A stretch of 64,000 bases of DNA from an uncultured Candidatus Binatia bacterium (GTDB lineage: Bacteria; Desulfobacterota; Binatia; UBA9968; JAJDTQ01): NCBI GenBank assembly GCA_965213675.1, contig OZ243916.1, positions 32,001-96,000 on the forward strand. Reading direction: 5' to 3'. Of the stretch, positions 28,167 to 44,459 are shown one piece after another. The position numbers and the translations under genes were made by a program. Below the pieces are notes generated by a model. It saw only the letters and a program-made list of their open reading frames with translations. It had not been told where the DNA came from and did no database searches. Position 1 is the first letter of the stretch, and each line of letters begins with the position of its first letter.

Positions 28167-29063
28167 ATGGCTTTCAGGATCGGCACGGCGGATGCGGGCG
28201 GCACGTTCGACACCCAAGGCGCGGCGGTGGCACAGGTGTTCAACGAATCCCGCCCGCCCGAGGCACACTGCGAGCTCACGCGCAGCTTCGCGAGCATCGA
28301 CAACGCCAACCGGCTCCATCGGGGCGAGATCGAGTTCGGCTTCATGGCCTCCAACTGGACGCCGCGGGCGGCGCGGGGGACGGCGCCCTTCGACCACCCC
28401 ATCGGACTGCGCATGGTGTCGCCGGCCAACGCCGGCCCGATCTTCTTCGTCACCCTCGCGGACTCGCCCGTGGGGAACATCGCCGATCTCGCCGGCAAGC
28501 GGGTGGCGGTGGGGGCCAGGGACAGCGGCATGACCCAGCACGTCCACACCCTCTGCGATGCGCTGGGCGTTCCCTTCTCGGACTTCGACCCGGTCTACAT
28601 GACCTTCCCGGAGGGAGCGGACGCCCTGGTGGCGGGGGAGGTGGACGTCCAGTTCCAGTGCCCGATCCCCAATGCGGTGATGACCGACCTGAGCGAGCGG
28701 GCCCGGGTCAAGGTGGTCCCGTACCGCGAGGACCAGATCGAGGACGTGCTCTCCAAGGTCCCGTTCTACCGGCGGGTCGTGATGCGCCGGGGCGCCTTCC
28801 GCGGAGTGGACGAAGATATCCCCCAGCTTGCGGTGCTCAACGTCCTGGTGAGCCACGAGCGGGTGGACGAGGAGCTCGTCTACGAGTTCGCCTCGACGCT
28901 GGTGCGGAACGCCGAAGCGCTGGCCCGGATCAATCCCCTGTTCGACACATTGGCCGAGCTTTACGAACCGCTACGGACCCAGGGCGCCGCGGCGCTGGAG
29001 CTGGACGGGGTGCCGCTGCATCCCGGAGCGGTGAGGGCCTACCGGGACGCGGGTTATCTTTGA
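28167..29063 (+). CDS. TAXI-family TRAP solute-binding-type protein, no signal peptide
   Basis: IGTA..GGTF, S.DN...L..GE, DLAGKRVAVG..SG, PLHPGA.R.YR; GGAGG RBS before the ATG. Confidence 0.82.
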   Translation: MAFRIGTADAGGTFDTQGAAVAQVFNESRPPEAHCELTRSFASIDNANRLHRGEIEFGFMASNWTPRAARGTAPFDHPIGLRMVSPANAGPIFFVTLADSPVGNIADLAGKRVAVGARDSGMTQHVHTLCDALGVPFSDFDPVYMTFPEGADALVAGEVDVQFQCPIPNAVMTDLSERARVKVVPYREDQIEDVLSKVPFYRRVVMRRGAFRGVDEDIPQLAVLNVLVSHERVDEELVYEFASTLVRNAEALARINPLFDTLAELYEPLRTQGAAALELDGVPLHPGAVRAYRDAGYL

Positions 29064-29090: not shown

Positions 29091-30392
29091 ATGAAGAATC
29101 CCATCGACGCGGCCGGCCGCCTCGCATCACGAGCCGAGGAAGACGGCGACTTCCGCGAACGTCTTCTCGCGCAACCCCGAGAGACCATCGAGAAGGAACT
29201 CGGCGTGACGCTGGCCGAGGACCATGAGATCCACGTGCACGAGGAAACCTACGGCGCCACGCACGTGGTGCTTCCGCCGCGCGGTAAATTCAGCGCGGCC
29301 GAACGGAAGGAGGCGAAAGCCGGCGCGACATCATTGGAGTTTCTTCGCAAGACGATGCACGATCCCGCGCCGCCCGCTCGTCCCCCGGCCGCTGGAGGGC
29401 CGAGCACCCGGGTGGACGCCGCGACCCCCGAGGCACTGGCAGGGGCGGGCAGGGAAAGCATCCGCCGCGGTCTCGCCTTCCTGGAATCCACCCTCGACGA
29501 ACAGGGGGCCTGGCATTGCATCCGGTTCAACACGGCCGACCCGAACATTCCGCGGCATTTCGAAAGACCTCCCTTCGTATCGGCCCTCTGCGTGCTCGCC
29601 CTGGAAAGCAGCGATGAAGCTCGCGCCAGGGCCATGTGCGCCGCCACCAGGGCGTACCTTGTCAGGACCATCGAGTATCCCGGGTTGTGGCGCTACTACC
29701 GCCACCTGCCCCAGGATCTGGATAGCACCTCGCTCTGCTCGCTTGTCCTCGGGACTCACCCATGGATTGCGCTGGGAAGAAACGTTCCGGCGATATTGGC
29801 GAACCGCGACGAGGAAGGCCGGTTCATGACCTGGGTGCTGGAGGAAGACGAACCCAACGTCGTGGCGACCTTTCGCATCGAGGCGGATCCGGTGGTCAAC
29901 GCCAACGTCATTGCGTATCTGGGCGACCACGCCGAGACCAAGGCTGCCCAACGATGGTTGGAATCGTTGATTGCCGAGGGCCGCCTCGAGGGCTCGTCCA
30001 AGTGGTATCCCGACACGGTGGCCATCTACTATGCCGCCACGCGCGCCATGGTCCGGGCGCGGCCCGCCCTCGATGGACTGCGCCCGATACTCGCCGACCG
30101 TATCCTGGGACTGCGCGACGACAACGGACAATTCGGCGACGTCCTCCGGACCGCGCAGGCCGTGTCGGCGCTCTACAACATTGGATGTCTTGGACGCATC
30201 GACGCCAAACGCCAGGTGGAGAGGTTCGTCGGTTGGCAACGTGAGAACGGGAGCTGGCCGGAGCTGCTCGCGTTCGGCGATCAGTCGTTGAAGTGGGGCG
30301 CGTTCGGACAGATAGGGCATGGCTCCGAAGCCGTGACCTCGGCGTTTTGTATCGAAGCGCTGGAGCGGCTGGTCGAAGTCCTGCGCGCCTGA
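29091..30392 (+). CDS. NHLP leader domain fused to a class II terpene cyclase / prenyltransferase-repeat alpha-alpha barrel domain
   Basis: aa 1-78 align without gaps to the precursor leader; C-terminal part has RRGLAFL, PQDLDSTS, DPVVNANV, SKWYP, QRENGSW, GSEAVTSA. Confidence 0.75.
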   Translation: MKNPIDAAGRLASRAEEDGDFRERLLAQPRETIEKELGVTLAEDHEIHVHEETYGATHVVLPPRGKFSAAERKEAKAGATSLEFLRKTMHDPAPPARPPAAGGPSTRVDAATPEALAGAGRESIRRGLAFLESTLDEQGAWHCIRFNTADPNIPRHFERPPFVSALCVLALESSDEARARAMCAATRAYLVRTIEYPGLWRYYRHLPQDLDSTSLCSLVLGTHPWIALGRNVPAILANRDEEGRFMTWVLEEDEPNVVATFRIEADPVVNANVIAYLGDHAETKAAQRWLESLIAEGRLEGSSKWYPDTVAIYYAATRAMVRARPALDGLRPILADRILGLRDDNGQFGDVLRTAQAVSALYNIGCLGRIDAKRQVERFVGWQRENGSWPELLAFGDQSLKWGAFGQIGHGSEAVTSAFCIEALERLVEVLRA

Positions 30393-30455
30393 CAGGTTTG
30401 TTGGCACCCGTATCGAGTGATAAAATTACACCGGTGCCGGGGAGGCTGGTCCTTT

Positions 30456-32852
30456 ATGCCGCAAGATTCAGCCCTGGGAGGGGGCGTGAGCTCGGACAAG
30501 GCTGACATCACGCAGCAGATCGAGCCGTCGGTCCGTAACGCGCTACCGCATTACCTGCCACTGGGCATTTTCCCGCTGCTTCTCGCCGCCGCGATGTACG
30601 GCGGCTGGTGGCTGTTGCCGCCATTTCTCTTCATGAGCGTCGTGGGGCCGCTGGATCGGGCGCTCGGTCCCGACGGCCGCAACATGGACCCGGAGAAAAC
30701 GCCGGAACGCCGGCTGCTCTGGCACAATCTGCCGGTCTGGATCTGGGCGTTTCTGTGGCCGCCGGCGCTCATTTTCGGCATGTGGCAAATCCTGGTCGCG
30801 AATCAGTTCGCGATCTGGGAAGCCGTGATCCTGGTGATTCTTCTGACCATGGAGGCGCAGGCTGTATTCGTGGTGGGTCACGAACTGGTCCACCGGCGCC
30901 TTGCCTGGGAACGGCGTCTCGGAGAATTCCTGCTGGCCTCCGCCTCGTATCCGCAATATTCCACGGAGCATGTCTACATCCACCACGCCAAGGTCGGCAC
31001 TCCGCTCGATGTGGGCTCGGCTCCGAAGGGGGAAAGTTTCTGGAGATATTTCCCCAAGGAAATCGTCAGCAACATCACCAACTCCTGGGAATTCGCCGGC
31101 GAGCGGCTGGCGCGGCGCGGTCTGCCGCGGTGGCACTACAGCAATCAGTTCTGGCGCTACGGCATCGCCGTCCTGTTCTGGTATGGACTGGTGTGGTGGA
31201 TGAGCGGGATCCTCGCCGTGCTGGTCTTTGTCTTTCTCGGCCTGAGCTGCGTCTTCTCGATGAAGATCAGCAACTACTTCCAGCACTACGGTCTGCGCCG
31301 GGTGCGTCAGCCCAACGGCCGTTGGGAAAAGGTGATGCCGCGCCATTCCTGGAACGCGGACTGGAAGTACAGCAACTGGATGTTTTTCAACATGCAGCGC
31401 CATGCGGATCATCATGCGGCGGCGGCACGCCACTACCCGTTGCTCCAGGTCCGCGGCGCCGATGAAGCGCCGGTATTGCCGGGCACCTACGCCGACATGA
31501 TGAACATCGTGCTGCGGCCCAGGCGCTGGTTCGAGAAGATGGACCCGCTGGTGGATCAATGGCGCGCGCATTTCTATCCGGAGATCGATGACTGGAGCGC
31601 CTACGACAGCCCGATTGCGGCGGCGCGGCCGGAAGCCTTCGAGGCCATCGTCGAAATCTTCGGCGCCGCCCCGCGGCTCGCCAGGTGGATCGAACGCAAT
31701 CCGGAGCTTCTGGACAGCCTGCGGGACCGGGAATTCACCGATCTCGACCTGCCGACGGGATTCGGGCCGGATCGGCAGACCGAGGCGATTGCGCGGCGCG
31801 GGCTTGCGCGACTCTATTGGACGGTGGAAATGGGCGTCCAGGACATGAAGGAACTGATCGCCGAAATACCCACGGCGGATGCCAGGGAAACCGCCGAGAT
31901 CGTACGAAACTGGTCCAACGACAAGGCGTTTCAGATCGCTATGCACGTGGTTCGCGGGAACCTGTCGCCGGCCGAGGCAAAGACCGCGCTGTCCAATCTC
32001 GCTGAAGCGTCGATTTCGACCTTGCTTGCCGCCGTGGTGGCGGATGGAGTCGAGCGGTCCGGACCGCTGGGGGCGGGCGGGGTCGCCGCGATATTCCTGG
32101 GCGATCTCGCCAGCCGGGAAGTTTATCCCGGCGTTGCCATCGACATGATGTTCGTTCATGACGGCGGCGAGTCCGGCGAGGAAGAGCGCCTGTGCCGGGG
32201 TTTCCGGGATGCCTTGACCGACCTGGCGCACGACAGCCTGTTGTTCTCCTCGATTCCGCCCGGCTCGAATTCGCTGTCGGCGTTGCCGCTTGCCGGACTG
32301 GCCGAGCATCGCGGCAAGCGTGCTTCCGGGGGAATTCCCGTGCTCACCCGGGCACGGTGCGTGTTCGAGTGCGGCGACTCCGGCATCGGCGGCCGCTTCG
32401 ATGAGGCACGGCGCGAAGCCTTGGCCGGATGCGGGGCGAACGAGCCCCTGATCGGCAAGCTGCGCGAGCCGCTGGAAGGCGCCGCCGAAATCAGCGTGTC
32501 CACATACGCCCGTATGCGCGGAGGGTTGGAGGCTGTCGAGAGGGCCGCGCGCTTCCTGCAGTTGACCAATGGCGGCGCGGGCTCCGACGATCCGGCTCCG
32601 CCCGCCGCGGCGCTGCTTCATGGCGCTGGCGCGGAGCCGCTGGCGCGGGCCGCGTCCCTGTGGCGGGACTTGCAGGGCATCACGCGCCTCATCGGCGGGG
32701 ATGGGTTCGACGCGGCCGCGGCAAGGCCGCGGGTCCAGTCGTTGGTCGCGAGCGCTTGCGGGCACGAGGACTTCGATGCGCTGAAGGCGGCGGTCGCCGA
32801 GACCGCGTCCCGCGCCGCCGCTGAGATCGATGCGCTTCTTTCCCGCGCATGA
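30456..32852 (+). CDS. AlkB-type membrane di-iron monooxygenase/desaturase fused to a degenerate GlnE-like nucleotidyltransferase domain
   Basis: His boxes HELVH, EHVYIHH, NYFQHYG, QRHADHH; C-terminal LSNLAEA, LGDLASRE...IDMMFV, LTRAR, RGGL...FLQL; start uncertain (30417/30456/30486). Confidence 0.8.
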   Translation: MPQDSALGGGVSSDKADITQQIEPSVRNALPHYLPLGIFPLLLAAAMYGGWWLLPPFLFMSVVGPLDRALGPDGRNMDPEKTPERRLLWHNLPVWIWAFLWPPALIFGMWQILVANQFAIWEAVILVILLTMEAQAVFVVGHELVHRRLAWERRLGEFLLASASYPQYSTEHVYIHHAKVGTPLDVGSAPKGESFWRYFPKEIVSNITNSWEFAGERLARRGLPRWHYSNQFWRYGIAVLFWYGLVWWMSGILAVLVFVFLGLSCVFSMKISNYFQHYGLRRVRQPNGRWEKVMPRHSWNADWKYSNWMFFNMQRHADHHAAAARHYPLLQVRGADEAPVLPGTYADMMNIVLRPRRWFEKMDPLVDQWRAHFYPEIDDWSAYDSPIAAARPEAFEAIVEIFGAAPRLARWIERNPELLDSLRDREFTDLDLPTGFGPDRQTEAIARRGLARLYWTVEMGVQDMKELIAEIPTADARETAEIVRNWSNDKAFQIAMHVVRGNLSPAEAKTALSNLAEASISTLLAAVVADGVERSGPLGAGGVAAIFLGDLASREVYPGVAIDMMFVHDGGESGEEERLCRGFRDALTDLAHDSLLFSSIPPGSNSLSALPLAGLAEHRGKRASGGIPVLTRARCVFECGDSGIGGRFDEARREALAGCGANEPLIGKLREPLEGAAEISVSTYARMRGGLEAVERAARFLQLTNGGAGSDDPAPPAAALLHGAGAEPLARAASLWRDLQGITRLIGGDGFDAAAARPRVQSLVASACGHEDFDALKAAVAETASRAAAEIDALLSRA

Positions 32853-35209
32853 AGGCGCCGGAGGTGCCGGCTGATCCGGCGCGGAAGACCCCGATGCAAG
32901 CGCAGACGGACGCGAATCCCCGGCGCGGAATCCTGATCAGGACGACTCCCGCGGACGAGGGTCTCGTCAAGCTTCCCGCGCTTGCTCCGCACCTGCAATT
33001 CCACGATATCGGCGAACAGCAGACCCTGCTGGTCTCCGAGTCGTTCAATACCCTGCTGCACGGCCAGCTGTATGGCGATCTGCTGCCGCTGCTGGACGGC
33101 CGGAACCCGCCGGACGAGATTGCCGGCGCCCTCGAGGGTGCCCATGCCGCCGCCGATGTTCTCGCGGCGATCGTCGCGCTCTCCGCCAAGGGCTATGTGG
33201 TTTCCGCCGATCATGGCCTGGACCGGGGCCGGGCGGCTTACTGGACGTCACTCGGCGCGTCGCCACGCTGGGTCGAACAACGGCTGGCGGAATCGCGCAT
33301 CGCGGTCGAAGGCGGCGACGGCGGGTTCATCCGGCATCTGGAAGAGAGCGGCGCCCGTTTGGGGACTGGCGCCCCCGGGCTCACCGTTGTTGTCTGCGAC
33401 GACTATCTCGGAGCACGCCTTGCGGAAGTGAATCGGCGCCAGCTCGAGGTGAGAGCGCCGTGGACGCTGGTGCGGCCGCGCGGCATGCAGGCGCTCTTCG
33501 GCCCTGTCTTTCCCGCGGACAAACAGGGACCCTGCTGGGAGTGTCTGGCGTACCGCTTGCGCAACCATCAGGAAGTCCACGGTTTCCTGCGCAACATTGC
33601 CGGCGAGGAGGGCGCCTTCAAGCCGTTCGCGGCCCAGCCCGCGGTGCTGGAGGCCCTGTACGGGCTGATGGCGGCGGAGATCGTCAAATGGCTGGTGCTG
33701 GATGAGGCCGCCCCGATTCACGAACGGGCGATGGCGATGAATGTCGGCGCCTTCGCAAGTTCGCAGCATCGGGTCATGCGCCGGCCGCAGTGCCTGGCCT
33801 GTGGCGACGAAGCGTTGCACCGGTCGGATCGATCGCCGGTTCCGCTGCGTCTGAACCCGAGCCCCAAGTGCCATTGCAACAGCGGCGGTGCGCGCTCCGT
33901 GGCGCCGGAGGTCACCCTGGCGAAGTACCGCCACTTGGTGAGCCCGATCAGTGGCGTCGTGACCTGGCTTTCGCGCACCACCGACGAGGCTGATGCCTGG
34001 CTGCATGTCTATTGGGCCGGGAGCAATCTCGGCATGCGAAGCCGGAGCTTGAGCTCGCTCAGACGCAGCCTGCGCAGCAAGAGCGCTGGCAAGGGCAGCA
34101 CACGGGAGCAATCCGAGGTCAGCGCGCTGTGCGAGGCGGTCGAGCGCTATTCGGGCGCCTTTCACGGTGACGAGATCCGCGTCCGCAAGCGATTCAACGA
34201 GTTCGCCGAGGGAGAGGCAATCCATCCCAACGATGCGCAGCTCTTCAGCGACCATCAGCTCGACAACGCGGAGAGCATCAACGCGAAGGGCCATCCCTAC
34301 AACATCGTGCCGCCGCGTCTCGAACCCGACGCCGAGATCGACTGGACGCCGGTGTGGTCGCTTACGCGGCGGCGGCATCGCCATCTGCCGGCGTCCATGC
34401 TTTACAGCATGCCGGCCGAACAGCGCGGCCCCTCGGACCTGATCGCCGATTCCAACGGCTGCGCGGCGGGCAACACGTTGGAAGAGGCCATCCTGCAGGG
34501 TTTCTATGAACTGGCCGAGCGCGATGCGTTCGCCATCTGGTGGTACAACCGCCTGCGAGTGCCCGCGGTCGATCTGGCGAGCTTCGGCGACGAGTATCTG
34601 GCATCGGCCACGGACCATTACGCCCGCTACGAGCGGGACATGTGGATGCTCGACGTCACCTCGGATATCGGCGTTCCCACGTTCGTCGCGCTTTCAAACC
34701 GGCCGGACGCCAAGACCGAGGACATCATCTACGGCGCCGGCGCCCACGCCGACCCGCGCATAGCGGCCCTGCGTGCGGTGTGCGAGTTGAACCAGTGCCT
34801 TACCTGGCTGCCACGTCCCGGAAGCGGCGATGGCCGGCCCATGATCGACGATCCGCTGGCGCTTTGGTGGTGGAAGACGGGGCGACTCGCCGACTGCTCC
34901 TGGCTGGTCCCCGCGGGGGACGTTCCCTTGCGTAGCGCCGCGAGCTATCCGGTGATCGAATCGACCGACACACGCGAGGACGTGGAGTATTGCCGCGGGC
35001 TTGTGGAAGTCAAGGGGATGGAGTTTCTGGTGCTGGACCAGACCCGGCCCGACATCGGTATGCCTGTGGTGCGGGTCATCGTGCCGGGCATGCGCCACTT
35101 TTGGGCAAGATTTGCGCCTGGCCGCCTTTACGAAGTGCCGGTCAGCATGGGCTGCCGGGAACGCCCCCTCGCTGAAGACGAACTGAATCCCGTACCAGTC
35201 ATCGCGTGA
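32849..35209 (+). CDS. srpC: fused RRE/E1-like-YcaO cyclodehydratase (azoline-forming)
   Basis: GPCWECL, RRPQCLACG, VSPISGVV, GKG, SALCEAVER, SNGCAAGNTLEEA, ELAERDA, Pro-rich C-terminus NPVPVIA; symbol recalled from sponge srp clusters. Confidence 0.92.
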   Translation: MKAPEVPADPARKTPMQAQTDANPRRGILIRTTPADEGLVKLPALAPHLQFHDIGEQQTLLVSESFNTLLHGQLYGDLLPLLDGRNPPDEIAGALEGAHAAADVLAAIVALSAKGYVVSADHGLDRGRAAYWTSLGASPRWVEQRLAESRIAVEGGDGGFIRHLEESGARLGTGAPGLTVVVCDDYLGARLAEVNRRQLEVRAPWTLVRPRGMQALFGPVFPADKQGPCWECLAYRLRNHQEVHGFLRNIAGEEGAFKPFAAQPAVLEALYGLMAAEIVKWLVLDEAAPIHERAMAMNVGAFASSQHRVMRRPQCLACGDEALHRSDRSPVPLRLNPSPKCHCNSGGARSVAPEVTLAKYRHLVSPISGVVTWLSRTTDEADAWLHVYWAGSNLGMRSRSLSSLRRSLRSKSAGKGSTREQSEVSALCEAVERYSGAFHGDEIRVRKRFNEFAEGEAIHPNDAQLFSDHQLDNAESINAKGHPYNIVPPRLEPDAEIDWTPVWSLTRRRHRHLPASMLYSMPAEQRGPSDLIADSNGCAAGNTLEEAILQGFYELAERDAFAIWWYNRLRVPAVDLASFGDEYLASATDHYARYERDMWMLDVTSDIGVPTFVALSNRPDAKTEDIIYGAGAHADPRIAALRAVCELNQCLTWLPRPGSGDGRPMIDDPLALWWWKTGRLADCSWLVPAGDVPLRSAASYPVIESTDTREDVEYCRGLVEVKGMEFLVLDQTRPDIGMPVVRVIVPGMRHFWARFAPGRLYEVPVSMGCRERPLAEDELNPVPVIA

Positions 35210-35217
35210 GGAGACAT

Positions 35218-36336
35218 ATGGATATTGACCAGGCCGTTACGCTGACCCAGGACCGTCTCGCCCAGGAGGGGGAGACCATGGGCGACCTGCTCGGGCACTT
35301 CCGAAACAGGGTTTCGCCGGTCCTGGTCGGCGGCCCGCAATGGGAGCGCATACTCGACTGCGCCGGGCAACTCCCCATCACCATGGGCGCCCTGCCGTTC
35401 GGCTTCGAGTTGCCGCTGCACGAGCCCGGGCCCGAGGCCGATTTCGGCGCTTCGCTGGCGAGCGGAACCCGGACGGCGGCGTTCTTCCAGAAGCGCGCCT
35501 GGGCCGATGAGACGGATGAGTCTGCCAGGGCCATCACGCGATTGTTCGGACAAATGGATGCCGGAGATTCACGCCTGCAGGAAATTGTCGGCCGCAAGTT
35601 GATGCTGGAATACGACATCGGCTCGGCGGGAGACGGTGAACGTTCGCATCCGGGCATGTTCCTGCGGCCCGGTGAACGCCCGATTGTCGGAGCCCGCGGC
35701 CAGGTGGATGATGTCCGTACGGTGGTGGATGCGCTCGTTTCCTGCGTCGGTTGGGAGGGGAATGACGCCGAGGGGGAGAACGTCGAACGAGCTTACCTGG
35801 CGCAGCCGGGGGACACGCGCCTGGACTCGTTCGGTGTATTCCCGTCGCGTTCACGGTCCATCCGCTTGGCGATCATGGGCTTCAAGGGGCAGGAGGAACT
35901 ACGTGCCTATCTTGAGGAGGCGGGTTGGCCCGGTCGGCTACCGGCCGTCGACGCCGTGATTTCGCGCTTCAAGGAACGCGCGAATATTGTCAGGACCGGG
36001 GTGAATGTCGACGTACGGGAAGAGGGTCTCGGTCCGACGCTCGGCCTGACGCTCATCGTCAAGCAGAGATATACAAAAGATTCACGTTACTGGCTCGACG
36101 GCCTGACCGACTGGGATCCGTTCCTGGAAGCCCTGGGCCGTGAGGAACTCGTCGTTCCGGAAAAGCTTGCGGAGCTCGCCGGCTGGGTGTCGAAAGCGAC
36201 GCCGCTATTCGGGAAGTCCGGGCGTTTCGTGCTGATGCGCGGCATTCACCACATAAAGCTGGTCATATCCGGCGATCAGCTTCGAGAAGCCAAAGCCTAT
36301 GTGTTCATGGTGCTCTCGGCAGCGGTGCCCTTTTGA
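35218..36336 (+). CDS. hypothetical RiPP-cluster protein, possible ABBA-fold prenyltransferase
   Basis: Coupled to YcaO with GAGGAG RBS; motifs FGFELPL...ADF, LEYD, HHIKLV...EAKAY; the fold call is inference. Confidence 0.55.
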   Translation: MDIDQAVTLTQDRLAQEGETMGDLLGHFRNRVSPVLVGGPQWERILDCAGQLPITMGALPFGFELPLHEPGPEADFGASLASGTRTAAFFQKRAWADETDESARAITRLFGQMDAGDSRLQEIVGRKLMLEYDIGSAGDGERSHPGMFLRPGERPIVGARGQVDDVRTVVDALVSCVGWEGNDAEGENVERAYLAQPGDTRLDSFGVFPSRSRSIRLAIMGFKGQEELRAYLEEAGWPGRLPAVDAVISRFKERANIVRTGVNVDVREEGLGPTLGLTLIVKQRYTKDSRYWLDGLTDWDPFLEALGREELVVPEKLAELAGWVSKATPLFGKSGRFVLMRGIHHIKLVISGDQLREAKAYVFMVLSAAVPF

Positions 36337-36354: not shown

Positions 36355-36402
36355 AAAAAGTTAGACCCTGTCACCCCCGCAATCGCGGGTGACGGGGTCT
36401 AT
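36355..36402 (-). terminator. intrinsic terminator between convergent genes
   Basis: Stem tagaccctgtcaccc/gggtgacggggtcta with U-run on the minus strand (aaaaa at 36355-36359). Confidence 0.75.
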
Positions 36403-36473: not shown

Positions 36474-36725
36474 TTACCAGCAGCAGCAAAGGCCCGCCGA
36501 GATCGCTTCGAGCTGTTCCTCTGTGATGTTCGGATCTGGCGGCAACGCGAGATGCACCGTCTGCATGTCGCTCTCGTGGACCTTGATGGTCATCGAGTCG
36601 GGAATCGTAATGCCCAATTCCCCGCTGATGGTAGCCTTCGGATCCGAGAGAAGTTTCTGCCTGAAATCGGTGTCCAGGGAAGACTTCTCGACAATTTGCT
36701 GCAGCATTTCATCACCACTTCTCAT
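36474..36725 (-). CDS. srpE: NHLP (proteusin) precursor peptide: 78-aa leader, AG cleavage site, core LCCCW
   Basis: DFRQKLLSDPKATI.ELG, VHE, HLALPP, ITEEQLEAISAG|LCCCW; AAGGAGG RBS. Confidence 0.95.
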   Translation of the reverse strand: MRSGDEMLQQIVEKSSLDTDFRQKLLSDPKATISGELGITIPDSMTIKVHESDMQTVHLALPPDPNITEEQLEAISAGLCCCW

Positions 36726-36770
36726 GGCAAACCCTCCTTCTCTCGGAACTACTATTACAATTCCAGCTGT

Positions 36771-36907: not shown

Positions 36908-39241
36908 CTAGGGCGCAACCGCGGCCGTCTGCCCGGACTTCCGGTCCACCGTCGTCAACAGCGCCGGCAGGAGCGTCAGGTCGGCGACGAGCGCGGAACC
37001 GATGATCATCGCGGTCAGGACCCCCACCTGTGCGGTGGGAACGAACGGCGAGAATACCAGTATGAGGAAGCCGGCCACCAGCACGACCGTCGTTGTGAAC
37101 ATGGCCTGGCCGGCGGTGTCAAAGGCGTGACGCACCGCTTCTTCGGCGCCCAGGCCGTCCTGAGACCGCGCACGGCGGTACTTGCTGAGAAAATGCACGG
37201 TATCGTCCACGACGATGCCTACGGTCATGGCCACCACCACGGACAGCGAGAGTCCCACCTGTCCGACCGTCAAACCCCAGACGCCGAAGCCCAGCACCGC
37301 GGGGACCAGATTGGGAGCGATGCTTATCAGACCCAGCCGCAGCGACTGCAAGGCGAAGAGGAGAATGGCGGAAATGGCCAGCAGCACGACCATGGTCCCG
37401 ACCACCATGGCGCGGATGTTGCGCTGTCCGATGTAGGCGAACAGCGCCGCGGGGCCGGTACTGTTGACGCCGCCGACATGCGGCGCGTTCTCCCTGAGCC
37501 AGGCCTCGGCACGCGCGTTCAGCTCAAGCAGCTCGCGCGAAGAAAGCGTCTCCGCCGATATCGTCACCCGCGTGGCGGACCTGGATCTGTCGAGCTGATT
37601 GTTCAGGTTCAGACCCTGCGGTAGCGAGAGCTCGTAGAGCACCAGGTATTGTGCCGCCAGTTCCTTGCTTTGCGGGATCCGGTAGGCGGCCGGATCGTCG
37701 CCGTGCATGCTCTTGTTGAGTTGCCGAAAGGTGTCGGTGATGACCGCCACGTGGCGTACAGGGGACTGCTGACGGTACCAGTCGGCGAAGTTGGCCACGT
37801 CAGCGAGGAAACGGGGGGCGGTGACACCGCCCTCGACGGATGCCTCCAGTGAGTATTCGATCAGGGTATTGCCGCTCAGGCGTTCGTCCATGAAATCGGT
37901 ATCCTGACGGAACTCGACGCTCTCATCGAAGAAATGGACCAGGACGTCATTGAGCTCGTTTCGCGGAATGGCCAGAATCATCGCGGTCACGACCACCAGC
38001 CATCCCCAGATGATCACCTTTCTGTAGCGCAGCACGGCATCCGCAACGAGCTTCATGACGGGCGCCCGGAGCCGGCGGTCCTTTGCCGCACGAATGGGAA
38101 GAAGCGAAAGCACGGCCGGCAGAAAGGTTACGGACAGAAGGAAGGAGGCGCCGACACCGAAAGCGACGAAGTTGCCCAGGTGACGGTAGGGAGGCACCTC
38201 GGAGAAGTTCATGCTCAGGAAGCCAAGCGTCGTCGTGAGGCTCGCGAGAAACACCGGATGCAGGTTGAGACGGATGGATTCGACGATGGCGTCGTGCCTG
38301 GATTCCCCGGCGCGCAGATGCCGCTGCAAAGCCACCAGCAGGTGCACGCAGTTGGCCACGACGATCATCAGGACGATGGTCGGCGCCGGGGAGATGGGCG
38401 GGGAAAAGGGTAAGCCGGCCCACACTCCCAGGCCCACCGACGCGAGAATGGAAAAGATCATGACCGTTCCGGTGGCTGCCACCCCCGCCCATCCGCGGGT
38501 GAGGATGCCGAGGATCAAGCCCATGAGCAGAAGGCTTGCGGGCAGAAAGATCATCTGGCTGCGGATGGAGGCTTCCACGAAGGTTTGGTTGACCATGACC
38601 GTGCCGACGACGCGGAGGTCCAGGCCGGGAAATCGTTCTTCCGCCTGCGCAGCCACCGATCTGGCGTATTCGGCCACTTCGGTCACGGCCTCCAGCAGGC
38701 CCTCCTCCGGCAGTTCAATGGTGACGCTGACAACGCTGACGTCACCGTTGCGGGCCAGAATACTCCCTGCGATGCGCGGGTCGGACAAGGCGATGGCGCG
38801 GACTCGGGACCGTGTTTCGGCCTGGGTCAGCTTTTGCGGGTCCACCAGGTCCCGCACGTACAAGTCGTCGCCGTCGGCGGTCGTGTATTGAAAGTTGGCG
38901 AGGGAGTCGACGCGCCTCGTGTAGGGTGTCCGCCAAGCGGCTTCCGTGAGCCAGACGGCGGCCGCGAGCGCGTCTGGCGACGTGGCGTCGCCATCGTCGG
39001 GAACGATCAGGAACGCGACGTTTTCGTTCTTCCCGTAAGTGTCCTCCAGCGCTTCCAGTGCCAGAAGCTGCGGATTGTCCTCGTCGAAGAAGATGCGGTA
39101 GTTGGCGGAGAATTCGAGCCGGGCAATGCCGCCGGCCGCCGCCGCGACCCACAACAGCGTGGCCAGGATGACCAGCCAGCGGCGGGCGAGCACCCACCTG
39201 GCGAATCGGGTCGCAAGTGGCTCTGTGGCTCCGGACGGCAT
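36908..39241 (-). CDS. MMPL/RND family transporter
   Basis: Two-repeat architecture, LASLTTTLGF.S, GIVVDDTVHFLSKY. Confidence 0.9.
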   Translation of the reverse strand: MPSGATEPLATRFARWVLARRWLVILATLLWVAAAAGGIARLEFSANYRIFFDEDNPQLLALEALEDTYGKNENVAFLIVPDDGDATSPDALAAAVWLTEAAWRTPYTRRVDSLANFQYTTADGDDLYVRDLVDPQKLTQAETRSRVRAIALSDPRIAGSILARNGDVSVVSVTIELPEEGLLEAVTEVAEYARSVAAQAEERFPGLDLRVVGTVMVNQTFVEASIRSQMIFLPASLLLMGLILGILTRGWAGVAATGTVMIFSILASVGLGVWAGLPFSPPISPAPTIVLMIVVANCVHLLVALQRHLRAGESRHDAIVESIRLNLHPVFLASLTTTLGFLSMNFSEVPPYRHLGNFVAFGVGASFLLSVTFLPAVLSLLPIRAAKDRRLRAPVMKLVADAVLRYRKVIIWGWLVVVTAMILAIPRNELNDVLVHFFDESVEFRQDTDFMDERLSGNTLIEYSLEASVEGGVTAPRFLADVANFADWYRQQSPVRHVAVITDTFRQLNKSMHGDDPAAYRIPQSKELAAQYLVLYELSLPQGLNLNNQLDRSRSATRVTISAETLSSRELLELNARAEAWLRENAPHVGGVNSTGPAALFAYIGQRNIRAMVVGTMVVLLAISAILLFALQSLRLGLISIAPNLVPAVLGFGVWGLTVGQVGLSLSVVVAMTVGIVVDDTVHFLSKYRRARSQDGLGAEEAVRHAFDTAGQAMFTTTVVLVAGFLILVFSPFVPTAQVGVLTAMIIGSALVADLTLLPALLTTVDRKSGQTAAVAP

Positions 39242-39304: not shown

Positions 39305-42238
39305 TCAGGCGATCTGCCTTCGGACCAGTTCCCTGAACACCCCGTCGACCTCCAGGAGTTCCTCGAAGGAGCCGCTCTGCACGACTTTTCCGGCCTGCAG
39401 CACGTAGATGCGGTCCGCCTGTTCCAGCGTGGACAGGCGGTGGGCGATGACGATGCGGGTCGACGTCAGCAAGGCCAGGTTCTGCATGACCTCGGCCTGG
39501 CCTTCGTTGTCGAGCCAGTTGGTTGCCTCGTCCAGCAGCATGATCCGCGGGTCGCCGAGCAGCGAGCGGGCGATGGTGACGCGCTGACTCTCGCCTCCCG
39601 ACAGCACGCCCCCGATGGCCCCGACCATGGTCATCATGCCCATGGGCATGGCCTTGATCTCGCTTTCGATCCCGGCGGCCCGGGACGCTTGCCATACCTC
39701 CTCGGTGGTCGTTCCCTCGTGGTGCGAGACGATGTTGTCCCAGAGGTCCTGGGGATGGAGCCTCACGGCCTGGGGAACCGCGCCAATCTTCCGGCGCACC
39801 TGTTTCAAATTCAGGTATCTCAGATCGCGGCCGTCGTAGTACACCGCGCCGGCGGTCGGCCGGTCGATGCCGAGGGCGAGCCGGAACAGGGTGCTCTTGC
39901 CGGCACCGGACTCGCCGGCAATCGCGATGAATTCACCGGGACGGGCGCGGATCGTGACATCGTCGAGAATCAACGGACCGTCGGAGTCGTAGCGGAAGGA
40001 GATACGGTCGAACAGGACGTCGCCCCCCAGGCGTTCCACCGGCTCTCCCTCGACGTCGGACTCGGGAACCGTGGCGAGCAGCGGGCGCATCTGGTCGAAC
40101 GCGGGCAGCATTGCGGCAACGGCGCCGAAGGACTCGCCGAGCCGTGCGATGGCGGACTGGAAAGCGATGAAGACGGTGTAAACGACGAGAAAATCGCCCA
40201 CTGGGACGTTGCGCTCGCTCGCCGTGACCACCGAGAAAAGCAGCACCCCGGCGGCAAGGTAGGGAAGCGCTGCGCCGAGTGCCCGCGAGTGTCCCTCGAG
40301 CGCCCCCAGTTCGAGTTCCGCGCGTTTCTGCTCGCGATAATCCCGCGCCCAGATGGCGAAGGCCGACCCTTCCGCATTTTCCACGCGCAGCTTGGCGATA
40401 CCGCCCACGATCTGGAACAGCCGCCCGGCGACGCGGCGCACCGCGCTGATCATCCGCCCATAAGGTGCAATCTGGCGCAACCCAAGGGCCACCGTGACCA
40501 GCAGCGAAGCCGCGCTGAAGACGAGGGCGATGACTCCGAGGGTGGTGTCGTAGAAGAAGATGACGCCAAAGACCGGGAGCAGGAAAACGATCGACAGCAG
40601 GCCGTCGGCGACGACTCCCTGAAAGCCGTCGCGAAGATTCTGGAACGTCATTCCCGCCATGGCCAGATCGCCCGCCGGATGGCGGTGCAGAATGCTTGGC
40701 GGAAGGCGCATGAGGCGGTCCCAGAAGGCGGCTTCGACGCGGGATGCCGAGCGTCCTTCGAGCCGCATCATCGCCGAGCTTTGAAACAGGTGCAGCAGTG
40801 CGCCGAGCAGGCCGAAGCCGGCGAGCGTCGCGGCCACCGCATAGAGCGCGCTGGCACTTCCCCCGGCCACGACGTGGTTCGCGACGAATCCAAGCGCGAG
40901 TGCCGGCAGCAGCTTGATCAGGCCGCCCGGGAGCCCGGCAATCACCAGCCGCGCCAGATCCGCGGCCGATCCATGCAGGGCGATTCTCATCAGGTCCGCC
41001 GGTTTCACGTCCTCTGGCGGCAACGGCTGATAGAATACCCAGGCTTCGTCCTGCAGCGCGCCGGCGCGCTCCTCCGTGAGCCGGACACGGCGTTTGCTGA
41101 CGGGGTCCACTTCCTGGTAGCGCCCGAAGATTCCCGGCAAGAGCGCAACGGGCCGGCCGTCCTCGGCGCGGAATGCCAGCATCGCGTTGCTGTCGCCGCG
41201 CCACCAGTTGCCCTCGCCCTTGAAGCGCACGCGCCGGGCGCGTACGCCCGACGCATCGAGTACGTCCACGAGGCCGACCGGAGCACCGGCGGGTCCCGAG
41301 CGCGCCGGGATCCTGAAGTCGATTCCCTGATGGCGGCCGACGATTTGCAGGGCATCCGCGGTAGCCGTGTCCTCGGCCCTGGCTTCCCGGTCCATCGGCA
41401 GGTCGTAGATGTTGAAAAGCCGCTGTCGGGCGGCTCTTTCGGCGGTGCGGCGGCTGGCTGTCCGCTCGCGTTCGAGATTCGCATCATCGACTACGGCCAA
41501 CCGGCGGTTCAGGCGTTCCACGGCGAAGGCCAACCCGTGAAACGACGCGAGCGCCGGCAGCAGCGTGCCTTGCCGCGCCAGCGTTTCGGTTGATTCGCCC
41601 GACAGTGTCGCTTCACCAAACAACGTGAGCCAAGCCGTCCGCGTCAGCGGTATCGCGGCTTCGGGTGCGCCGCTTGCTTCAGCGAGTTCCGTCGGCCCGA
41701 TCATATCCATGAAAAGGCTTACGCCGCGAGGCGGTGTGGACACCCACACGACACCGCGCCGCACGGACAGCGTACAAGCGGCCAGCGTCTGCGTCACCCC
41801 GGGTCCGGCCAGCGCGGTGGCGCGCGGGATGTGACTTACGAGCCGTGAAAGCGTATCGGTCACGGCGGTAAGCCAGGTGTCGGTCTGTTCGGCCAGCTCT
41901 GCCGGATGAACGCCGGACAGCAAGGATGCCGGCAGGCGTTTCAGCAGGGTACCCGGCAATCCCTTGGCGATCACCCTGAGCGTGGTGTCGCCGCCATTGT
42001 CGTCTTGTTCGTCCGGCGCGACGCCCCACAGCAATCTGCCCGATCCGCAACGCAGCAGATGCTGCGGCGCCGCCTGCTGCACGCCGTCCCTGAATTCGAC
42101 CAGGAAGAGATCGGCGACGCCCTGATCGATGAACCAGACGCTATCCGGATCGTCGAGGTTCACCGGCAGGTTGCCGGCGCAGGGCTCGGATGTGCCCGAG
42201 CGGGCGGCGAGTTGGGCTATGGTTGCGTGTTCCGGCAT
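39305..42238 (-). CDS. NHLP system ABC transporter, permease/ATP-binding subunit without peptidase
   Basis: WWRGD..AMLAF, WDRLMRLP, GESGAGKST, LSGGE.QR, LLDEAT, IAHRLST. Confidence 0.9.
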   Translation of the reverse strand: MPEHATIAQLAARSGTSEPCAGNLPVNLDDPDSVWFIDQGVADLFLVEFRDGVQQAAPQHLLRCGSGRLLWGVAPDEQDDNGGDTTLRVIAKGLPGTLLKRLPASLLSGVHPAELAEQTDTWLTAVTDTLSRLVSHIPRATALAGPGVTQTLAACTLSVRRGVVWVSTPPRGVSLFMDMIGPTELAEASGAPEAAIPLTRTAWLTLFGEATLSGESTETLARQGTLLPALASFHGLAFAVERLNRRLAVVDDANLERERTASRRTAERAARQRLFNIYDLPMDREARAEDTATADALQIVGRHQGIDFRIPARSGPAGAPVGLVDVLDASGVRARRVRFKGEGNWWRGDSNAMLAFRAEDGRPVALLPGIFGRYQEVDPVSKRRVRLTEERAGALQDEAWVFYQPLPPEDVKPADLMRIALHGSAADLARLVIAGLPGGLIKLLPALALGFVANHVVAGGSASALYAVAATLAGFGLLGALLHLFQSSAMMRLEGRSASRVEAAFWDRLMRLPPSILHRHPAGDLAMAGMTFQNLRDGFQGVVADGLLSIVFLLPVFGVIFFYDTTLGVIALVFSAASLLVTVALGLRQIAPYGRMISAVRRVAGRLFQIVGGIAKLRVENAEGSAFAIWARDYREQKRAELELGALEGHSRALGAALPYLAAGVLLFSVVTASERNVPVGDFLVVYTVFIAFQSAIARLGESFGAVAAMLPAFDQMRPLLATVPESDVEGEPVERLGGDVLFDRISFRYDSDGPLILDDVTIRARPGEFIAIAGESGAGKSTLFRLALGIDRPTAGAVYYDGRDLRYLNLKQVRRKIGAVPQAVRLHPQDLWDNIVSHHEGTTTEEVWQASRAAGIESEIKAMPMGMMTMVGAIGGVLSGGESQRVTIARSLLGDPRIMLLDEATNWLDNEGQAEVMQNLALLTSTRIVIAHRLSTLEQADRIYVLQAGKVVQSGSFEELLEVDGVFRELVRRQIA

Positions 42239-42248: not shown

Positions 42249-44459
42249 TCAGCCTGACTTGACCAGCTTGAAGTACGTGCCGTCCCGGTCCGCCATCAAC
42301 TCGTCGTGGGTGCCGCGCTGCACTTCCACGCCCTTGTCGAGAACGATGATCTGGTCGCAGTCCCTCACGGTGCTCAGCCGGTGCGCCACGATCAGGCAGG
42401 TGACGCCGCGGCGCCGCAAGGCATCATCGACGTATTCCTCCGTCGCGGCATCGAGCGCGCTGGTCGCTTCGTCCAGAACGAGCACCGTCGGATTGCCCAC
42501 CAGCGCCCGGGCGATTTCCAGCCTTTGCCGCTGGCCGCCGCTGAAATTCACCCCGCCTTCCTCGACCAGGGTCGCATATCCGTGGGGCCGGAGCAGGATT
42601 TCTTCGTGGATGCAGGCGTCCCGCGTTGCGGCCACGATGACTTCATCCGGAACGGCCGGGTTCCACAAGGTGATGTTGTCGCGCAGGGAGGCGGAAAACA
42701 GCACTGCCTCCTGATCCACCATGGAAATGGACCGCCGCAGCACTTCCACGGGAATCTCATCCCGCGGATGGCCGTCGAACAGGATCTCGCCCGACCAGGG
42801 TTGAGAGATGCCCGAGACCAGACGCGCCAGGGTCGACTTTCCCGAGCCGCTGGGACCCACCACGGCAACCCGCTGCCCAGGCCTGATCACGAGGTTGAAG
42901 TCCTTGATCAAGGGCGGCCGGCTCTTGTTGTAACCGAAGTTGACGTCGCGCAGTTCGAGGCGGCCTGCAAGCTGAAGCCGGCCGTTGAACGTGGGGATGG
43001 ACTCCGATTCGGGACTTCGACGGCTGAAAACGGGGTCCTCGGCGGTCCTGGAGACGTCTTCCAGTCGTTGCAGATCGGTTTCGAGGGCGTGGCGTTTGTC
43101 GGCGAACTCCAGAAAGCGTCCGACAGGCGCCAGGAACATCTCGGCCAGGATATAGAACCCGACCAGCGTCCCCAGGGTCATTTGTCCGGTCATGACCAGG
43201 CTTCCTCCGATGCCCAGGATCGCCGCGGCGCGAAGCGCGGTGACCAGGCCCGGAAGCGCGGTACTGACGGAGGCCAGCTCGGAATAGAGCTGGCGCGCGC
43301 GCAGTTCGCGCGCCTGCTGACCGCTCCAGCGCGAGAAGAACCGATCATCCGACCCCGTCATGCGCAGGTTGTCCGCGTGACTCAACATCTGCATTCCGAA
43401 GCCGATCAGCAGTCCCTGTTCGCGCCTCATCGCGTGGCTTCGGACGTCCCGGAGCGCGTTGAGAAAGTGGGCCAGCAGTCCGTGCAGGAGGGCCAGCAGC
43501 ACGATGATCAGGGTGAGCAGGACGTCGTAGGCCAGCATGGCGAAGAGCAACACCGCGCTCATCGCCATGTCGATGAGAAGCACGAGAAACTGCTCCGTCA
43601 GGTTCTTCGCGATCCTGTCGATGGACGAGACCCGGTCGGTCAAATCGCCCACCAGCCTGTGTTCGAAAAACTCCACCGGCAACCGCAGCAGCCGGGACAG
43701 GCCCCGGTTGTAGCCGACAACGGAAATCCGCACCGCGAGCCGTTTGAGGAATCGGTGCTTGAGCAGAGACAGCACGTACACCAGCACGCCGCCGCCGAGC
43801 AACGCTGCCACCAAACCGCCCCAAGGCCCATGGTTTTCCAGAACGTTGTCCACGAAAACACCGAGGGACACGGGGACCAGCAGCGCCAGCAAGGTCAACA
43901 TGAGCACGCAGGCAAGCACCCCGGTAAGCACGTTCCATGATCCGGCCAGCAAGGTGCGCAATTGGCTGAACAGGCCGGGCCGTTCGCCGCCCGCCGTGAA
44001 ATCGGCGCCGCGCTTGAACTGTAGCGCGATGCCACTGTAGCTCTTGGTGAACTCTTCCGCGGAAAGCGTGCGCCGCCCCGTGGCCGGGTCATTGAGGTGG
44101 AAATTGCGGCTGTCGAACCCTTCGAGGACGACGAAATGGCTGAACTGCCAGAACAGGATCAGGGGCAACGGGAGCTTCTTCAGTGAGTCGGCGCGTAGGC
44201 TGAGCCCCCTGCATTCGAGGCCGTAGTGCCTGGAGGCGCGCGAGATGCTCGCCGCGCTGCTGCCGTCCCGGCTGACCTCGCACTTCTCGCGCAACTCGGC
44301 AAGCGGCACCCAGCGCCCGAAGTAGCCCAGAATGCTGCCGAGGCAGGCGGCGCCACATTCCGTCGCGTGCATCTGCAACAGAATCGGCGTGGTCACCCTT
44401 CGTTTCGACGGATCCGCGCCGGCCCTGTTGTCTGCCCCCCTGGACGCGCGCGGCTGCAT
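42249..44459 (-). CDS. NHLP system peptidase-containing ABC transporter (C39/permease/ATPase)
   Basis: LQMHATECGAACL, HFVV.EG, NDPA.GRR, GPSGSGKST, FSGGQRQR. Confidence 0.93.
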   Translation of the reverse strand: MQPRASRGADNRAGADPSKRRVTTPILLQMHATECGAACLGSILGYFGRWVPLAELREKCEVSRDGSSAASISRASRHYGLECRGLSLRADSLKKLPLPLILFWQFSHFVVLEGFDSRNFHLNDPATGRRTLSAEEFTKSYSGIALQFKRGADFTAGGERPGLFSQLRTLLAGSWNVLTGVLACVLMLTLLALLVPVSLGVFVDNVLENHGPWGGLVAALLGGGVLVYVLSLLKHRFLKRLAVRISVVGYNRGLSRLLRLPVEFFEHRLVGDLTDRVSSIDRIAKNLTEQFLVLLIDMAMSAVLLFAMLAYDVLLTLIIVLLALLHGLLAHFLNALRDVRSHAMRREQGLLIGFGMQMLSHADNLRMTGSDDRFFSRWSGQQARELRARQLYSELASVSTALPGLVTALRAAAILGIGGSLVMTGQMTLGTLVGFYILAEMFLAPVGRFLEFADKRHALETDLQRLEDVSRTAEDPVFSRRSPESESIPTFNGRLQLAGRLELRDVNFGYNKSRPPLIKDFNLVIRPGQRVAVVGPSGSGKSTLARLVSGISQPWSGEILFDGHPRDEIPVEVLRRSISMVDQEAVLFSASLRDNITLWNPAVPDEVIVAATRDACIHEEILLRPHGYATLVEEGGVNFSGGQRQRLEIARALVGNPTVLVLDEATSALDAATEEYVDDALRRRGVTCLIVAHRLSTVRDCDQIIVLDKGVEVQRGTHDELMADRDGTYFKLVKSG

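Follow-up and report, generated by a model that had tools for sequence, protein, structure and literature searches.

A conserved leader-like NHLP-family module fused to a terpene-cyclase-like enzyme in the srp proteusin cluster of sponge symbionts

Why would an enzyme that tailors a peptide carry, at its own N-terminus, a domain resembling the leader of the peptide precursor? The question is raised by a 64,000-nt stretch of DNA from an uncultured Candidatus Binatia bacterium (GCA_965213675.1, OZ243916.1 positions 32,001-96,000, forward strand), referred to here as the window, in which a 433-amino acid (aa) protein begins with a leader-like module and continues as a predicted terpene cyclase. 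We take this protein to be SrpA, its letter and those of SrpB, SrpD and SrpF having been assigned by gene order. Judged by its gene content, the locus is the known srp cluster (sponge-derived proteusin, a peptide made by ribosomes and then modified after translation, RiPP) of sponge symbionts, because an NHLP (nitrile-hydratase-like leader) precursor with an LCCCW core, a YcaO cyclodehydratase, a tryptophan halogenase and NHLP-type transporters all lie in the window and match the cluster described in PMC10858898 and bioRxiv 2023.06.09.544420. The core LCCCW of the precursor SrpE is reported to receive three thiazolines from the YcaO protein SrpC and a bromine on its C-terminal Trp from SrpI (PMC10858898, PMC10286304). 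None of the srp cluster, the leaders of the NHLP family and the prenyltransferase-cyclase chemistry of RiPPs is new in itself. A natural NHLP-enzyme fusion, or a function for SrpA or SrpD, was not described in any text returned by full-text literature searches, nor was one found by look-ups in PMC10858898, PMC12537861, PMC10286304, bioRxiv 2023.06.09.544420, PMC9426513, PMC11832590, PMC12715784, PMC2887384, PMC4603692 and PMC12455567, although a prior description is possible; PMC11832590 refers, for the srp genes, only to 'several genes of unknown function'.

The initial annotation of this DNA proposed that aa 1-78 of SrpA align without gaps to the 78-aa precursor leader with 24 identities, and this was reproduced by tblastn. 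When SrpA aa 1-110 were searched against the window, the one significant non-self match was SrpE (36725-36492, - strand; E 1.1e-11, with the next match at E 0.02), and aa 1-78 of the two proteins align gaplessly at 30.8% identity (24/78), up to the point where the SrpE open reading frame (ORF) ends in ISAG followed by LCCCW. The shared residues that had been listed (DFR..LL..P, TI..ELG.T, VHE, H..LPP and the terminal AG) are all present, and residues common to SrpA and SrpE are D18, F21, R22, L25, L26, P29, I33, E36, G38, T40, V49, H50, E51, H58, L61, P62, P63 and G78. The TIGR03793 model matched SrpA aa 8-64 with an E-value of 3.8e-11 and 42.7 bits, under the curated cut-off of 50.9, while SrpE scored 70.6 bits; by sequence comparison the SrpA N-terminus is clearly homologous to the NHLP family, yet it fails membership of TIGR03793 by the curated rule. 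Similarly, Pfam NHase_alpha matched the N-terminus (E 1.3e-4), and among solved structures it matched nitrile hydratase alpha chains (E 3e-5) and the NHLP leader 8TB1 (E 0.0085). Public pipelines also detect NHase_alpha on SrpA-type proteins, sometimes misnaming them 'nitrile hydratase subunit alpha', and a search of the ESM Atlas with SrpA aa 1-100 returned only small NHLP-like hypothetical proteins (best score 0.82), which is a hint at most. The start of the protein is plausible because a Shine-Dalgarno-like GGAGAGG precedes its ATG (29091) by 5 nt. The idea of a metal site in SrpA (H45/H48/H50/H58) was rejected, since an ordinary NHLP precursor encoded in this genome shares three of the four residues (H48, H50 and H58).

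Retention of the module was assessed by scanning one genome per species with the single protein SrpA, which gave 94 relatives; the counts reported here use the best 80 loci, which are close orthologues only. The N-terminal module is encoded in 80/80 of these loci, 79 of which begin at residue 11 or before, the only later start being in a locus truncated by a contig end (L044). The loci belong to metagenome-assembled genomes (GTDB genomes) labelled as about ten phyla, with labels that include Acidobacteriota, Binatia, Thermodesulfobacteriota/'Deltaproteobacteria', Nitrospirota, Nitrospinota, Gemmatimonadota, Alpha- and Gammaproteobacteria, Latescibacterota and others. In addition, of 1062 homologues in the database, the best 120 have lengths of 429-466 aa, with 99-100% query coverage and 76-100% identity. 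Among 48 full-length coding sequences (1057 pairs with a synonymous distance, dS, of 0.2-1.5), the ratio of nonsynonymous to synonymous change (dN/dS) was 0.25 in the leader-like nucleus, 0.16 in the tail that follows it (aa 79-100), 0.68 in the tether and 0.16 in the catalytic toroid. The module is under purifying selection roughly as strong as that on the catalytic domain, and the linker is near-neutral. Because the fusion is present in 80/80 related loci and under purifying selection, it is neither an artefact nor a one-off, and the proposal that the leader-like part has been kept is upheld. Homologues lacking the domain, which had been named as the sign of a one-off fusion or assembly artefact, do occur as stand-alone proteins of 300-340 aa (37-46% identity, aligned to SrpA aa 110-430 only), but exclusively outside the srp clade, within which all 80 are fused.

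The genes surrounding SrpA are likewise recurrent. Within 10 kb of SrpA, SrpC was found in 70 of the 80 loci, SrpD and SrpB in 68 each, the two ATP-binding cassette (ABC) genes in 68 and 69, the halogenase in 48 and the MMPL transporter in only 21. A true precursor was located in 59 of the loci, with an LCCCW terminus in 57 of these. SrpC and SrpE lie farther than 10 kb from SrpA in four loci (L047, L057, L063 and L068), and in 4/4 both genes are present elsewhere in the genome, so that these four loci provide no natural genome with SrpA and without SrpC. Homologues of the toroid were found in just 2 of 400 other genomes sampled from the window's own phylum, a rarity that fits the horizontal spread described for srp clusters.

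An AlphaFold2 (AF2) model of SrpA, built from an 85-row alignment with an overall pLDDT of 86.4, predicts the structured nucleus of an NHLP at the N-terminus, with a three-helix bundle (alpha1-3; helices at 7-17, 19-27 and 29-37), a beta-hairpin (strands at 48-53 and 56-60) and a fourth helix, alpha4, at 69-76. Confidence is high for aa 11-40 (pLDDT 87-90) and low for aa 51-90. The salt bridges of the solved NHLP, K15/E37 and K31/D43 (PMC10858898), have equivalents in SrpA as R/K14-E36 and K/R30-E/D43, based on column conservation in 75 orthologues, the set also used for the residue frequencies of the tail and of the leader motifs given below. Where leaders have the L(X)4L and cleavage region, SrpA has a conserved tail of its own, in which E71, R72, A75, G78, S81, L82, F84, L85, T88, D91, P92, A93, P94, P95 and R97 are each conserved at 0.92-1.00, and which is retained in P0123, the most distant fused homologue (55% identical). 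Within the tail, aa 91-100 (DPAPP.RPP) are modelled with a confidence of 81, against 52-63 for their neighbours. The tether beyond it is rich in Ala (0.28), Pro (0.14) and Arg (0.11) and nearly fixed in length, with 23 residues from R97 to R121 in 55 of 60 sequences.

The features by which leaders are known to be read are lost or unconstrained in the module. In the consensus for double-glycine (C39 peptidase) substrates, positions -4, -7 and -12 relative to the cleaved bond are hydrophobic and position -2 is G, A or S. SrpA orthologues have Ala at -4 in 100%, Arg at -7 in 99%, Thr (69%) or Ala (16%) at -2, and F, L or Y at -12. The initial annotation had read this difference correctly from the single sequence, with I(-12), L(-7) and I(-4) in the precursor replaced by F, R and A in the enzyme, and its judgement that the module is probably not cleavable agrees with the orthologues, in which the Arg at -7 is R72, in place of the second Leu of L(X)4L. 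The first position of that motif, 67, is F (0.56), L (0.29) or Y (0.09) in SrpA and position 72 is R (0.99), whereas SrpE has I (0.88) and L (0.88) or M (0.12) at the same positions; the motif is reported to be used by SrpI and by C39 domains (PMC10858898). There is no short core or small product either, as 355 residues of tether and enzyme follow G78 and the total length of 433 aa is conserved. Finally, positions 7, 8, 10 and 12 of helix alpha1 fall below 0.7 conservation in SrpA, while SrpE keeps M7, L8, Q10, V12, K14 and S15. NHLP-YcaO binding requires both alpha1 and L(X)4L, with alpha1 as the determinant of YcaO specificity (PMC12455567). Because L(X)4L and the C39 hydrophobics are lost and alpha1 is unconstrained, it is very unlikely, as far as sequence can indicate, that the module is brominated, cleaved, exported or bound by a RiPP recognition element (RRE) in the canonical way.

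These losses bear directly on two of the functions that had been suggested. Under the first, the C39 ABC transporter would recognise the module as an export tag or cleavable leader and secrete or cleave the enzyme along with the peptide. An NHLP-type C39 transporter pair is indeed encoded in the cluster, and G78 is invariant and followed by a small residue. However, the hydrophobics read by C39 are replaced by fixed Ala and Arg and -2 is mostly Thr, the L(X)4L that has gone has a reported role in C39 binding (PMC10858898), and a 315-aa toroid would be a far bigger cargo than a 5-aa core, so that we regard such a role as highly improbable; on sequence grounds export and cleavage appear the least likely of the functions proposed in the initial annotation. 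Canonical docking on the RRE of the YcaO protein also appears weakened by the variability of alpha1 and the absence of L(X)4L.

The module might nevertheless mimic a leader, occupying the leader-binding site on SrpC (RRE) or SrpD to assemble a multi-enzyme complex or to activate its partner in trans, an effect that free leaders have on some cyclodehydratases. SrpC does contain a winged-helix/RRE-type region, and a missing partner would explain why SrpC alone is described as poorly active and hard to purify, with SrpE only partly modified (PMC10286304). The tail residues F84(X)4L/M89 reproduce an L(X)4L-like spacing, with a Leu-to-Phe change being tolerated in MprE7 (PMC12455567), and SrpA, SrpC and SrpE co-occur in all four genomes in which they are not adjacent. 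Yet alpha1, the helix responsible for YcaO specificity (PMC12455567), varies more than any other part of the SrpA nucleus and is conserved in SrpE, the canonical L(X)4L has been destroyed by an Arg present in 99% of orthologues, and a mimic filling the leader site would compete with the substrate. We consider such mimicry somewhat unlikely.

The relationship of the module to genuine precursors was a point on which the initial annotation went too far, as it spoke of the enzyme's own copy of the leader. Against SrpE the module scores 123 (24/78 identities), and against two other, unrelated NHLP precursors of the same genome it scores 126 (27/78) and 142 (30/67). The module is no closer to its cognate leader than to unrelated NHLPs, and the shared residues are therefore features of the NHLP-family fold. 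The two further precursors lie more than 1 Mb from the window (L081:1477-1737 and L083:1480-1869, both - strand), have cores of 7 and 6 residues after AGG, both with a terminal Trp, and leaders that are identical to one another at 44/78 positions and as close to the SrpA module as SrpE is. Two further ORFs of this genome (G000:C1:836437-836838, + strand, and 1291308-1291706, - strand) each have two tandem matches to the NHLP model, the same internal duplication that alignment of the module to solved nitrile hydratase alpha chains brings out. When a SrpE profile was searched against proteins of 147-2000 aa, 12 matches were obtained. At least eight of them look like precursors of the SrpE type whose genes were called too long: seven align over 98-100% of the query at 83-92% identity, and the eighth, at 39%, has a match to the NHLP-Burk family as well. 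Another, P0402 (243 aa), is 78% identical to SrpE across 48% of the query and has PF01970, a family that no other protein of the analysis showed. None of the 12 was assigned to a family of terpene cyclases or prenyltransferases.

An equal distance from all NHLPs implies an old fusion, which would suit a relic, left when an NHLP precursor gene was read through into a cyclase gene and retained solely to keep the enzyme stable or soluble; NHLPs are described as small, stable and well-expressed folds (PMC10858898). An invariant 27-residue tail motif in a region of low model confidence would be unexpected for a passive solubility tag, however, as would a dN/dS at the low level of the catalytic domain over about ten phyla. 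A relic of this kind is improbable.

What, then, is the enzyme to which the module is attached? A profile of the family matched drimenol synthase in the PDB (E 7e-28), followed by squalene-hopene cyclases, AstC and MstE. Foldseek comparison of the model with the PDB recovered the alpha/alpha-toroid of AsDMS (E 9e-12, TMq 0.56-0.58), MstE (E 3e-9) and squalene-hopene cyclases. The sequence D209-L-D211-S-T aligns on the DDLDTT motif of drimenol synthase, with D211 at the residue that reads N in the D333N entry, and corresponds to the DxDD/DxDTT general-acid motif: D209, L210, D211 and S212 are invariant in 60/60 fused homologues, and in a set of 16 homologues including stand-alone forms D211 is invariant and D209 is present in at least 90%. 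These comparisons of sequence and model support SrpA aa 119-433 as a class II terpene-cyclase-like domain of the monodomain type, with protonation-initiated cyclisation of a polyprenyl chain as its predicted activity, and sharpen the earlier call of a terpene cyclase.

The likely partner of the cyclase, on the basis of sequence and model, is SrpD. SrpD had no Pfam or NCBIfam match, but its AF2 model (pLDDT 89.4) consists of five alpha-alpha-beta-beta repeats, each a helix pair and a strand pair, that form an ABBA barrel, and Foldseek gave 60 matches at E <= 1e-3, all those listed (ranks 1-49) being ABBA or DMATS prenyltransferases at moderate TM scores of 0.39-0.50. SrpD is also homologous to the N-terminal half of two proteins of 670-691 aa (P0217 and P0218), the C-terminal half of which is a SrpA-type toroid. 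Hubrich et al. 2024 are said to have found that prenyltransferase-cyclase (PC) maturases act on RiPPs including a proteusin. The fused maturases NctPC and ChrPC place C10-C20 prenyl groups on a RiPP Trp, which are then cyclised (PMC13290415). SrpD and SrpA do not form one polypeptide: each has its own ORF in the window, as in all 68 loci (of 80) where SrpD was found, and in at least nine of the 80 loci, where gene order is rearranged, SrpA is directly followed by SrpD and SrpE. Given the ABBA fold of SrpD and the SrpD-like/toroid fusions, the srp cluster looks like a split version of the PC system. A split arrangement of another kind is seen in another RiPP-like cluster (L092, G171:C129, 3055-13949), where a distant toroid homologue without an NHLP domain (9416-10453) comes directly after the gene for a peptide prenyltransferase of the cyanobactin type (8487-9356), which matches PirF and PagF at E 1e-19. 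Three radical-SAM/SPASM genes and genes for an NTP_transf_5 protein and an ABC transporter complete the cluster; this is the one case in which the gene context of stand-alone toroid homologues was seen.

The enzyme itself could be the target of the module, which would then act in cis, either by folding onto its own toroid as a lid, pseudo-substrate or autoinhibitor, or by sheltering a hydrophobic prenyl chain in its helical bundle. Elsewhere among class II cyclases, completion of the active site falls to a second domain, for example the HAD domain of drimenol synthase, and the locally raised AF2 confidence of aa 91-100 may reflect packing on the toroid. The NHLP nucleus has moreover been likened to acyl carrier proteins (PMC10858898). 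On the other hand, stand-alone and P-C-fused homologues keep the catalytic motif without any such module, and a near-neutral tether argues against a rigid interface. A role in cis is unlikely in our estimation.

The reading that we tentatively favour, although we hold its probability to be short of even, is that the module is a tethered, non-cleavable adaptor that holds the cyclase on a precursor-bound intermediate, probably via the near-invariant C-terminal half of the SrpE leader. Aa 1-100 would be an NHLP-family member converted to an adaptor, with the folded nucleus of the leader retained, the parts for binding, bromination, cleavage and export exchanged for a new invariant tail, and a flexible tether of about 20 residues linking it to the class II terpene cyclase. 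The adaptor would substitute for the lost covalent P-C link between SrpD and SrpA by binding, most likely, the C-terminal half of the SrpE leader or its nucleus, and the prenylated C-terminal Trp of LCCCW would thereby reach the active site of the toroid before the C39 transporter removes the leader. Both the prenylation and cyclisation of SrpE and the binding partner of the adaptor are inferred. A tethered adaptor fits best because a folded leader-type nucleus is combined with a new linear motif, invariant although its surroundings are predicted to be flexible, and with a neutral tether; a tether that is near-neutral in sequence and fixed in length would suit an outreaching module better than it would a rigid lid. 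The occurrence of the module only in the lineage where the cyclase is separate from the prenyltransferase gives further support.

A more specific version, which is distinctly doubtful, is homotypic leader recognition, in which the NHLP unit of the enzyme pairs with the NHLP nucleus or tail of the substrate leader. Units of the NHLP type are paired elsewhere, a point that also speaks for the adaptor in general: nitrile hydratase alpha contains two tandem NHLP-like repeats, and NHLP-Burk precursors are reported to come in tandem pairs, the two members being fused in some genomes (PMC2887384). Homotypic pairing would recreate across two molecules the two-repeat layout that nitrile hydratase alpha has within one.

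Several observations weigh against a tethered adaptor or against the pairing of NHLP units. The srp literature examined reports neither prenylation or cyclisation of SrpE nor an isoprenoid-bearing srp product. The solved NHLP leader was reported to be monomeric in solution at three concentrations (PMC10858898), indicating that NHLP units have no general tendency to pair. The split cyclase of G171 stands beside its peptide prenyltransferase without such a domain, and the stand-alone homologues at 37-46% identity also lack it, so that an adaptor is no general requirement of split cyclases. Furthermore, SrpE is almost invariant, and co-variation could not back a pairing. In a predicted complex of SrpE with SrpA aa 1-118, the scores of 0.29 and 0.28 (mark 0.32), obtained without controls, count neither for nor against. 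Mirror-tree comparison over the 80 loci found that distances of the N-terminal module correlate with those of every cluster protein; with the toroid controlled for, partial r was 0.33 for the second NHLP-type transporter (ABC2), 0.31 for the C39-ABC transporter, 0.29 for SrpB, 0.25 for the SrpC N-terminus, 0.01 for SrpD and -0.03 for SrpE, values that support no conclusion, as long proteins provide the best-estimated distances and SrpE hardly varies. Mutual information between column pairs of the module and those of SrpE, SrpC or SrpD, a comparison equally without power, gave no signal (95th percentiles of 0.17-0.22, against 0.16-0.20 for the toroid-column control).

Several known systems bear comparison with the SrpA module. 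Like the leaders of NHLP/proteusin precursors (TIGR03793; SrpE, MprE7/8TB1, OspA and PoyA), it has the same fold family, length and salt bridges, but unlike them it falls below the curated cut-off, is without L(X)4L, a C39-type site or a short core, and has an unconstrained alpha1, an invariant tail of its own and a 355-aa tether and enzyme behind it. Engineered leader-LctM and leader-LynD fusions reportedly consist of an N-terminal leader, a flexible linker and the enzyme, with the intact cognate leader switching the enzyme on in cis. SrpA has the same topology as these constructs, but its natural module lacks the known recognition motifs. In borosins, the core, and hence the substrate, is fused to the enzyme. 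They resemble SrpA in that a RiPP enzyme is naturally joined, by a covalent link, to an element of the precursor type, but the SrpA enzyme is fused to a leader-type domain without a core; borosins are mentioned as self-methylating precursor-enzyme fusions in PMC10858898. The likeness to NctPC and ChrPC lies in an MstE-like monodomain class II cyclase acting with a peptide prenyltransferase on a Trp-containing RiPP (PMC13290415), the difference being that P and C are separate genes in srp and that C has an NHLP-like module, rather than P, at its N-terminus. Lastly, nitrile hydratase alpha and NHLP-Burk pairs contain units homologous to the SrpA module, with two NHLP-like units in one protein or pair, whereas SrpA lacks the metal-binding CxxCSC of nitrile hydratase alpha and a second repeat, and a pairing with SrpE would be intermolecular.

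The features of the locus are collected in Table 1.

Table 1. Position, strand and supporting evidence for the parts of SrpA and the other srp genes, in window coordinates.
Feature	Position	Strand	Evidence
SrpA NHLP-family nucleus, aa 1-78	29091..29324	+	homology, AF2, 75-orthologue conservation, dN/dS 0.25; ends in invariant G78
SrpA protein-specific conserved tail, aa 71-100	29301..29390	+	conservation in 75 orthologues; overlaps end of leader-like part
SrpA variable Ala/Pro/Arg-rich tether, aa 101-118	29391..29444	+	dN/dS 0.68; near-fixed length
SrpA alpha/alpha-toroid, class II terpene-cyclase-like, aa 119-433 and stop	29445..30392	+	profile vs PDB, Foldseek, motif conservation
SrpA motif D209-L-D211-S-T	29715-29729	+	aligned on DDLDTT of drimenol synthase
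SrpB, 811 aa, desaturase-type membrane domain and GlnE-like nucleotidyltransferase region	30417..32852	+	PF00487 E 3.6e-25; PF03710 E 7e-8
SrpC, winged-helix/RRE, E1-like and YcaO	32849..35209	+	YcaO E 2e-94; TIGR03882 E 1e-36; TIGR03604 E 2e-81
SrpD, ABBA-fold aromatic-prenyltransferase-like, 376-aa ORF (372 aa on record)	35206..36336	+	AF2, Foldseek
SrpE, 83-aa NHLP precursor (78-aa leader and core LCCCW)	36474..36725	-	TIGR03793 E 7e-20, 70.6 bits, above cut-off
SrpF, MMPL/HAE3 RND transporter, HpnN-like	36908..39241	-	TIGR00921 E 2e-40, HpnN model E 5e-31, both below cut-offs
ABC2, NHLP-system ABC transporter without peptidase domain	39305..42238	-	TIGR03797 E 6e-200 over aa 291-976
NHLP-system ABC transporter with C39 peptidase domain	42249..44459	-	TIGR03796 E 1e-249; Peptidase_C39 E 3e-35
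Flavin-dependent tryptophan halogenase, SrpI-like	47324..48595	+	PF04820 E 4e-43

Several of these genes have peculiarities of their own. SrpB is an unusual fusion, with the desaturase-type domain at aa 134-344 and the GlnE-like region at aa 405-590; in some lineages its identity is only 41-59% and its strand is opposite. The srpE region (36380-36760, - strand) has a strong ribosome-binding site, GAGAAGGAGGG, and inverted repeats 3' of the gene that may form a terminator, both of which fit the very high transcription reported for 252-bp srp precursor genes (bioRxiv 2023.06.09.544420). SrpF resembles the hopanoid transporter HpnN, a likeness that would suit a lipid-like, cyclised-terpenoid product. 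About 290 extra aa (41339-42238, - strand) stand ahead of the TIGR03797-matching part of ABC2; the extension looks real because the ORF starts only 11 nt past the stop of the C39 transporter, and a search of aa 1-300, considered as a docking domain, returned no family match and no solved relative. Directly 5' of SrpA is a gene for a TAXI-type TRAP solute-binding protein (28167-29063, + strand), which is common to only 8 of the 80 related loci and marks both the cluster boundary and the closest lineages (SrpA identity 81-90%), in records labelled Vicinamibacteria, Syntrophobacterales, Binatia, Deltaproteobacteria and Thermodesulfobacteriota. Farther away, a 2417-aa ORF (6694-13947, + strand) lies within a stretch of strongly positive GC skew. 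The window sequence is nearly complete in four sequencing runs of one sample, and one RNA run has 0.04 of its words.

The wider interest of the module follows from the standing of the cluster. In sponge microbiomes, few RiPP clusters are reported to be as widespread or as highly transcribed as the srp clusters (bioRxiv 2023.06.09.544420, PMC9426513), and in the srp literature examined SrpC and SrpI are the characterised enzymes and the final product is cryptic. The combination of an ABBA prenyltransferase-like protein, a class II cyclase-like enzyme and an HpnN-like transporter predicts a peptide-isoprenoid hybrid as the product, and involvement of SrpD and SrpA may explain why reconstitution with SrpC and SrpI alone stalled (PMC10286304). 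That a tailoring enzyme carries a conserved but rewired domain of a kind otherwise confined to the modified peptide suggests a hitherto unexplored route by which such enzymes may join their pathway. The reading of the unusually large, folded leaders of NHLP precursors is a subject of current research (PMC10858898, PMC12455567, PMC12537861), reagents for SrpE, SrpC and SrpI exist, and a natural leader-type domain on an enzyme offers a test case for that reading. If homotypic recognition proved true, a RiPP substrate would be recognised via a leader-descended domain rather than an RRE, which would be a new principle of leader recognition, and the cryptic srp product would be a thiazoline/bromo-Trp peptide bearing a cyclised isoprenoid. 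If the adaptor is portable, it could also direct cyclases or other enzymes to NHLP-tagged peptides.

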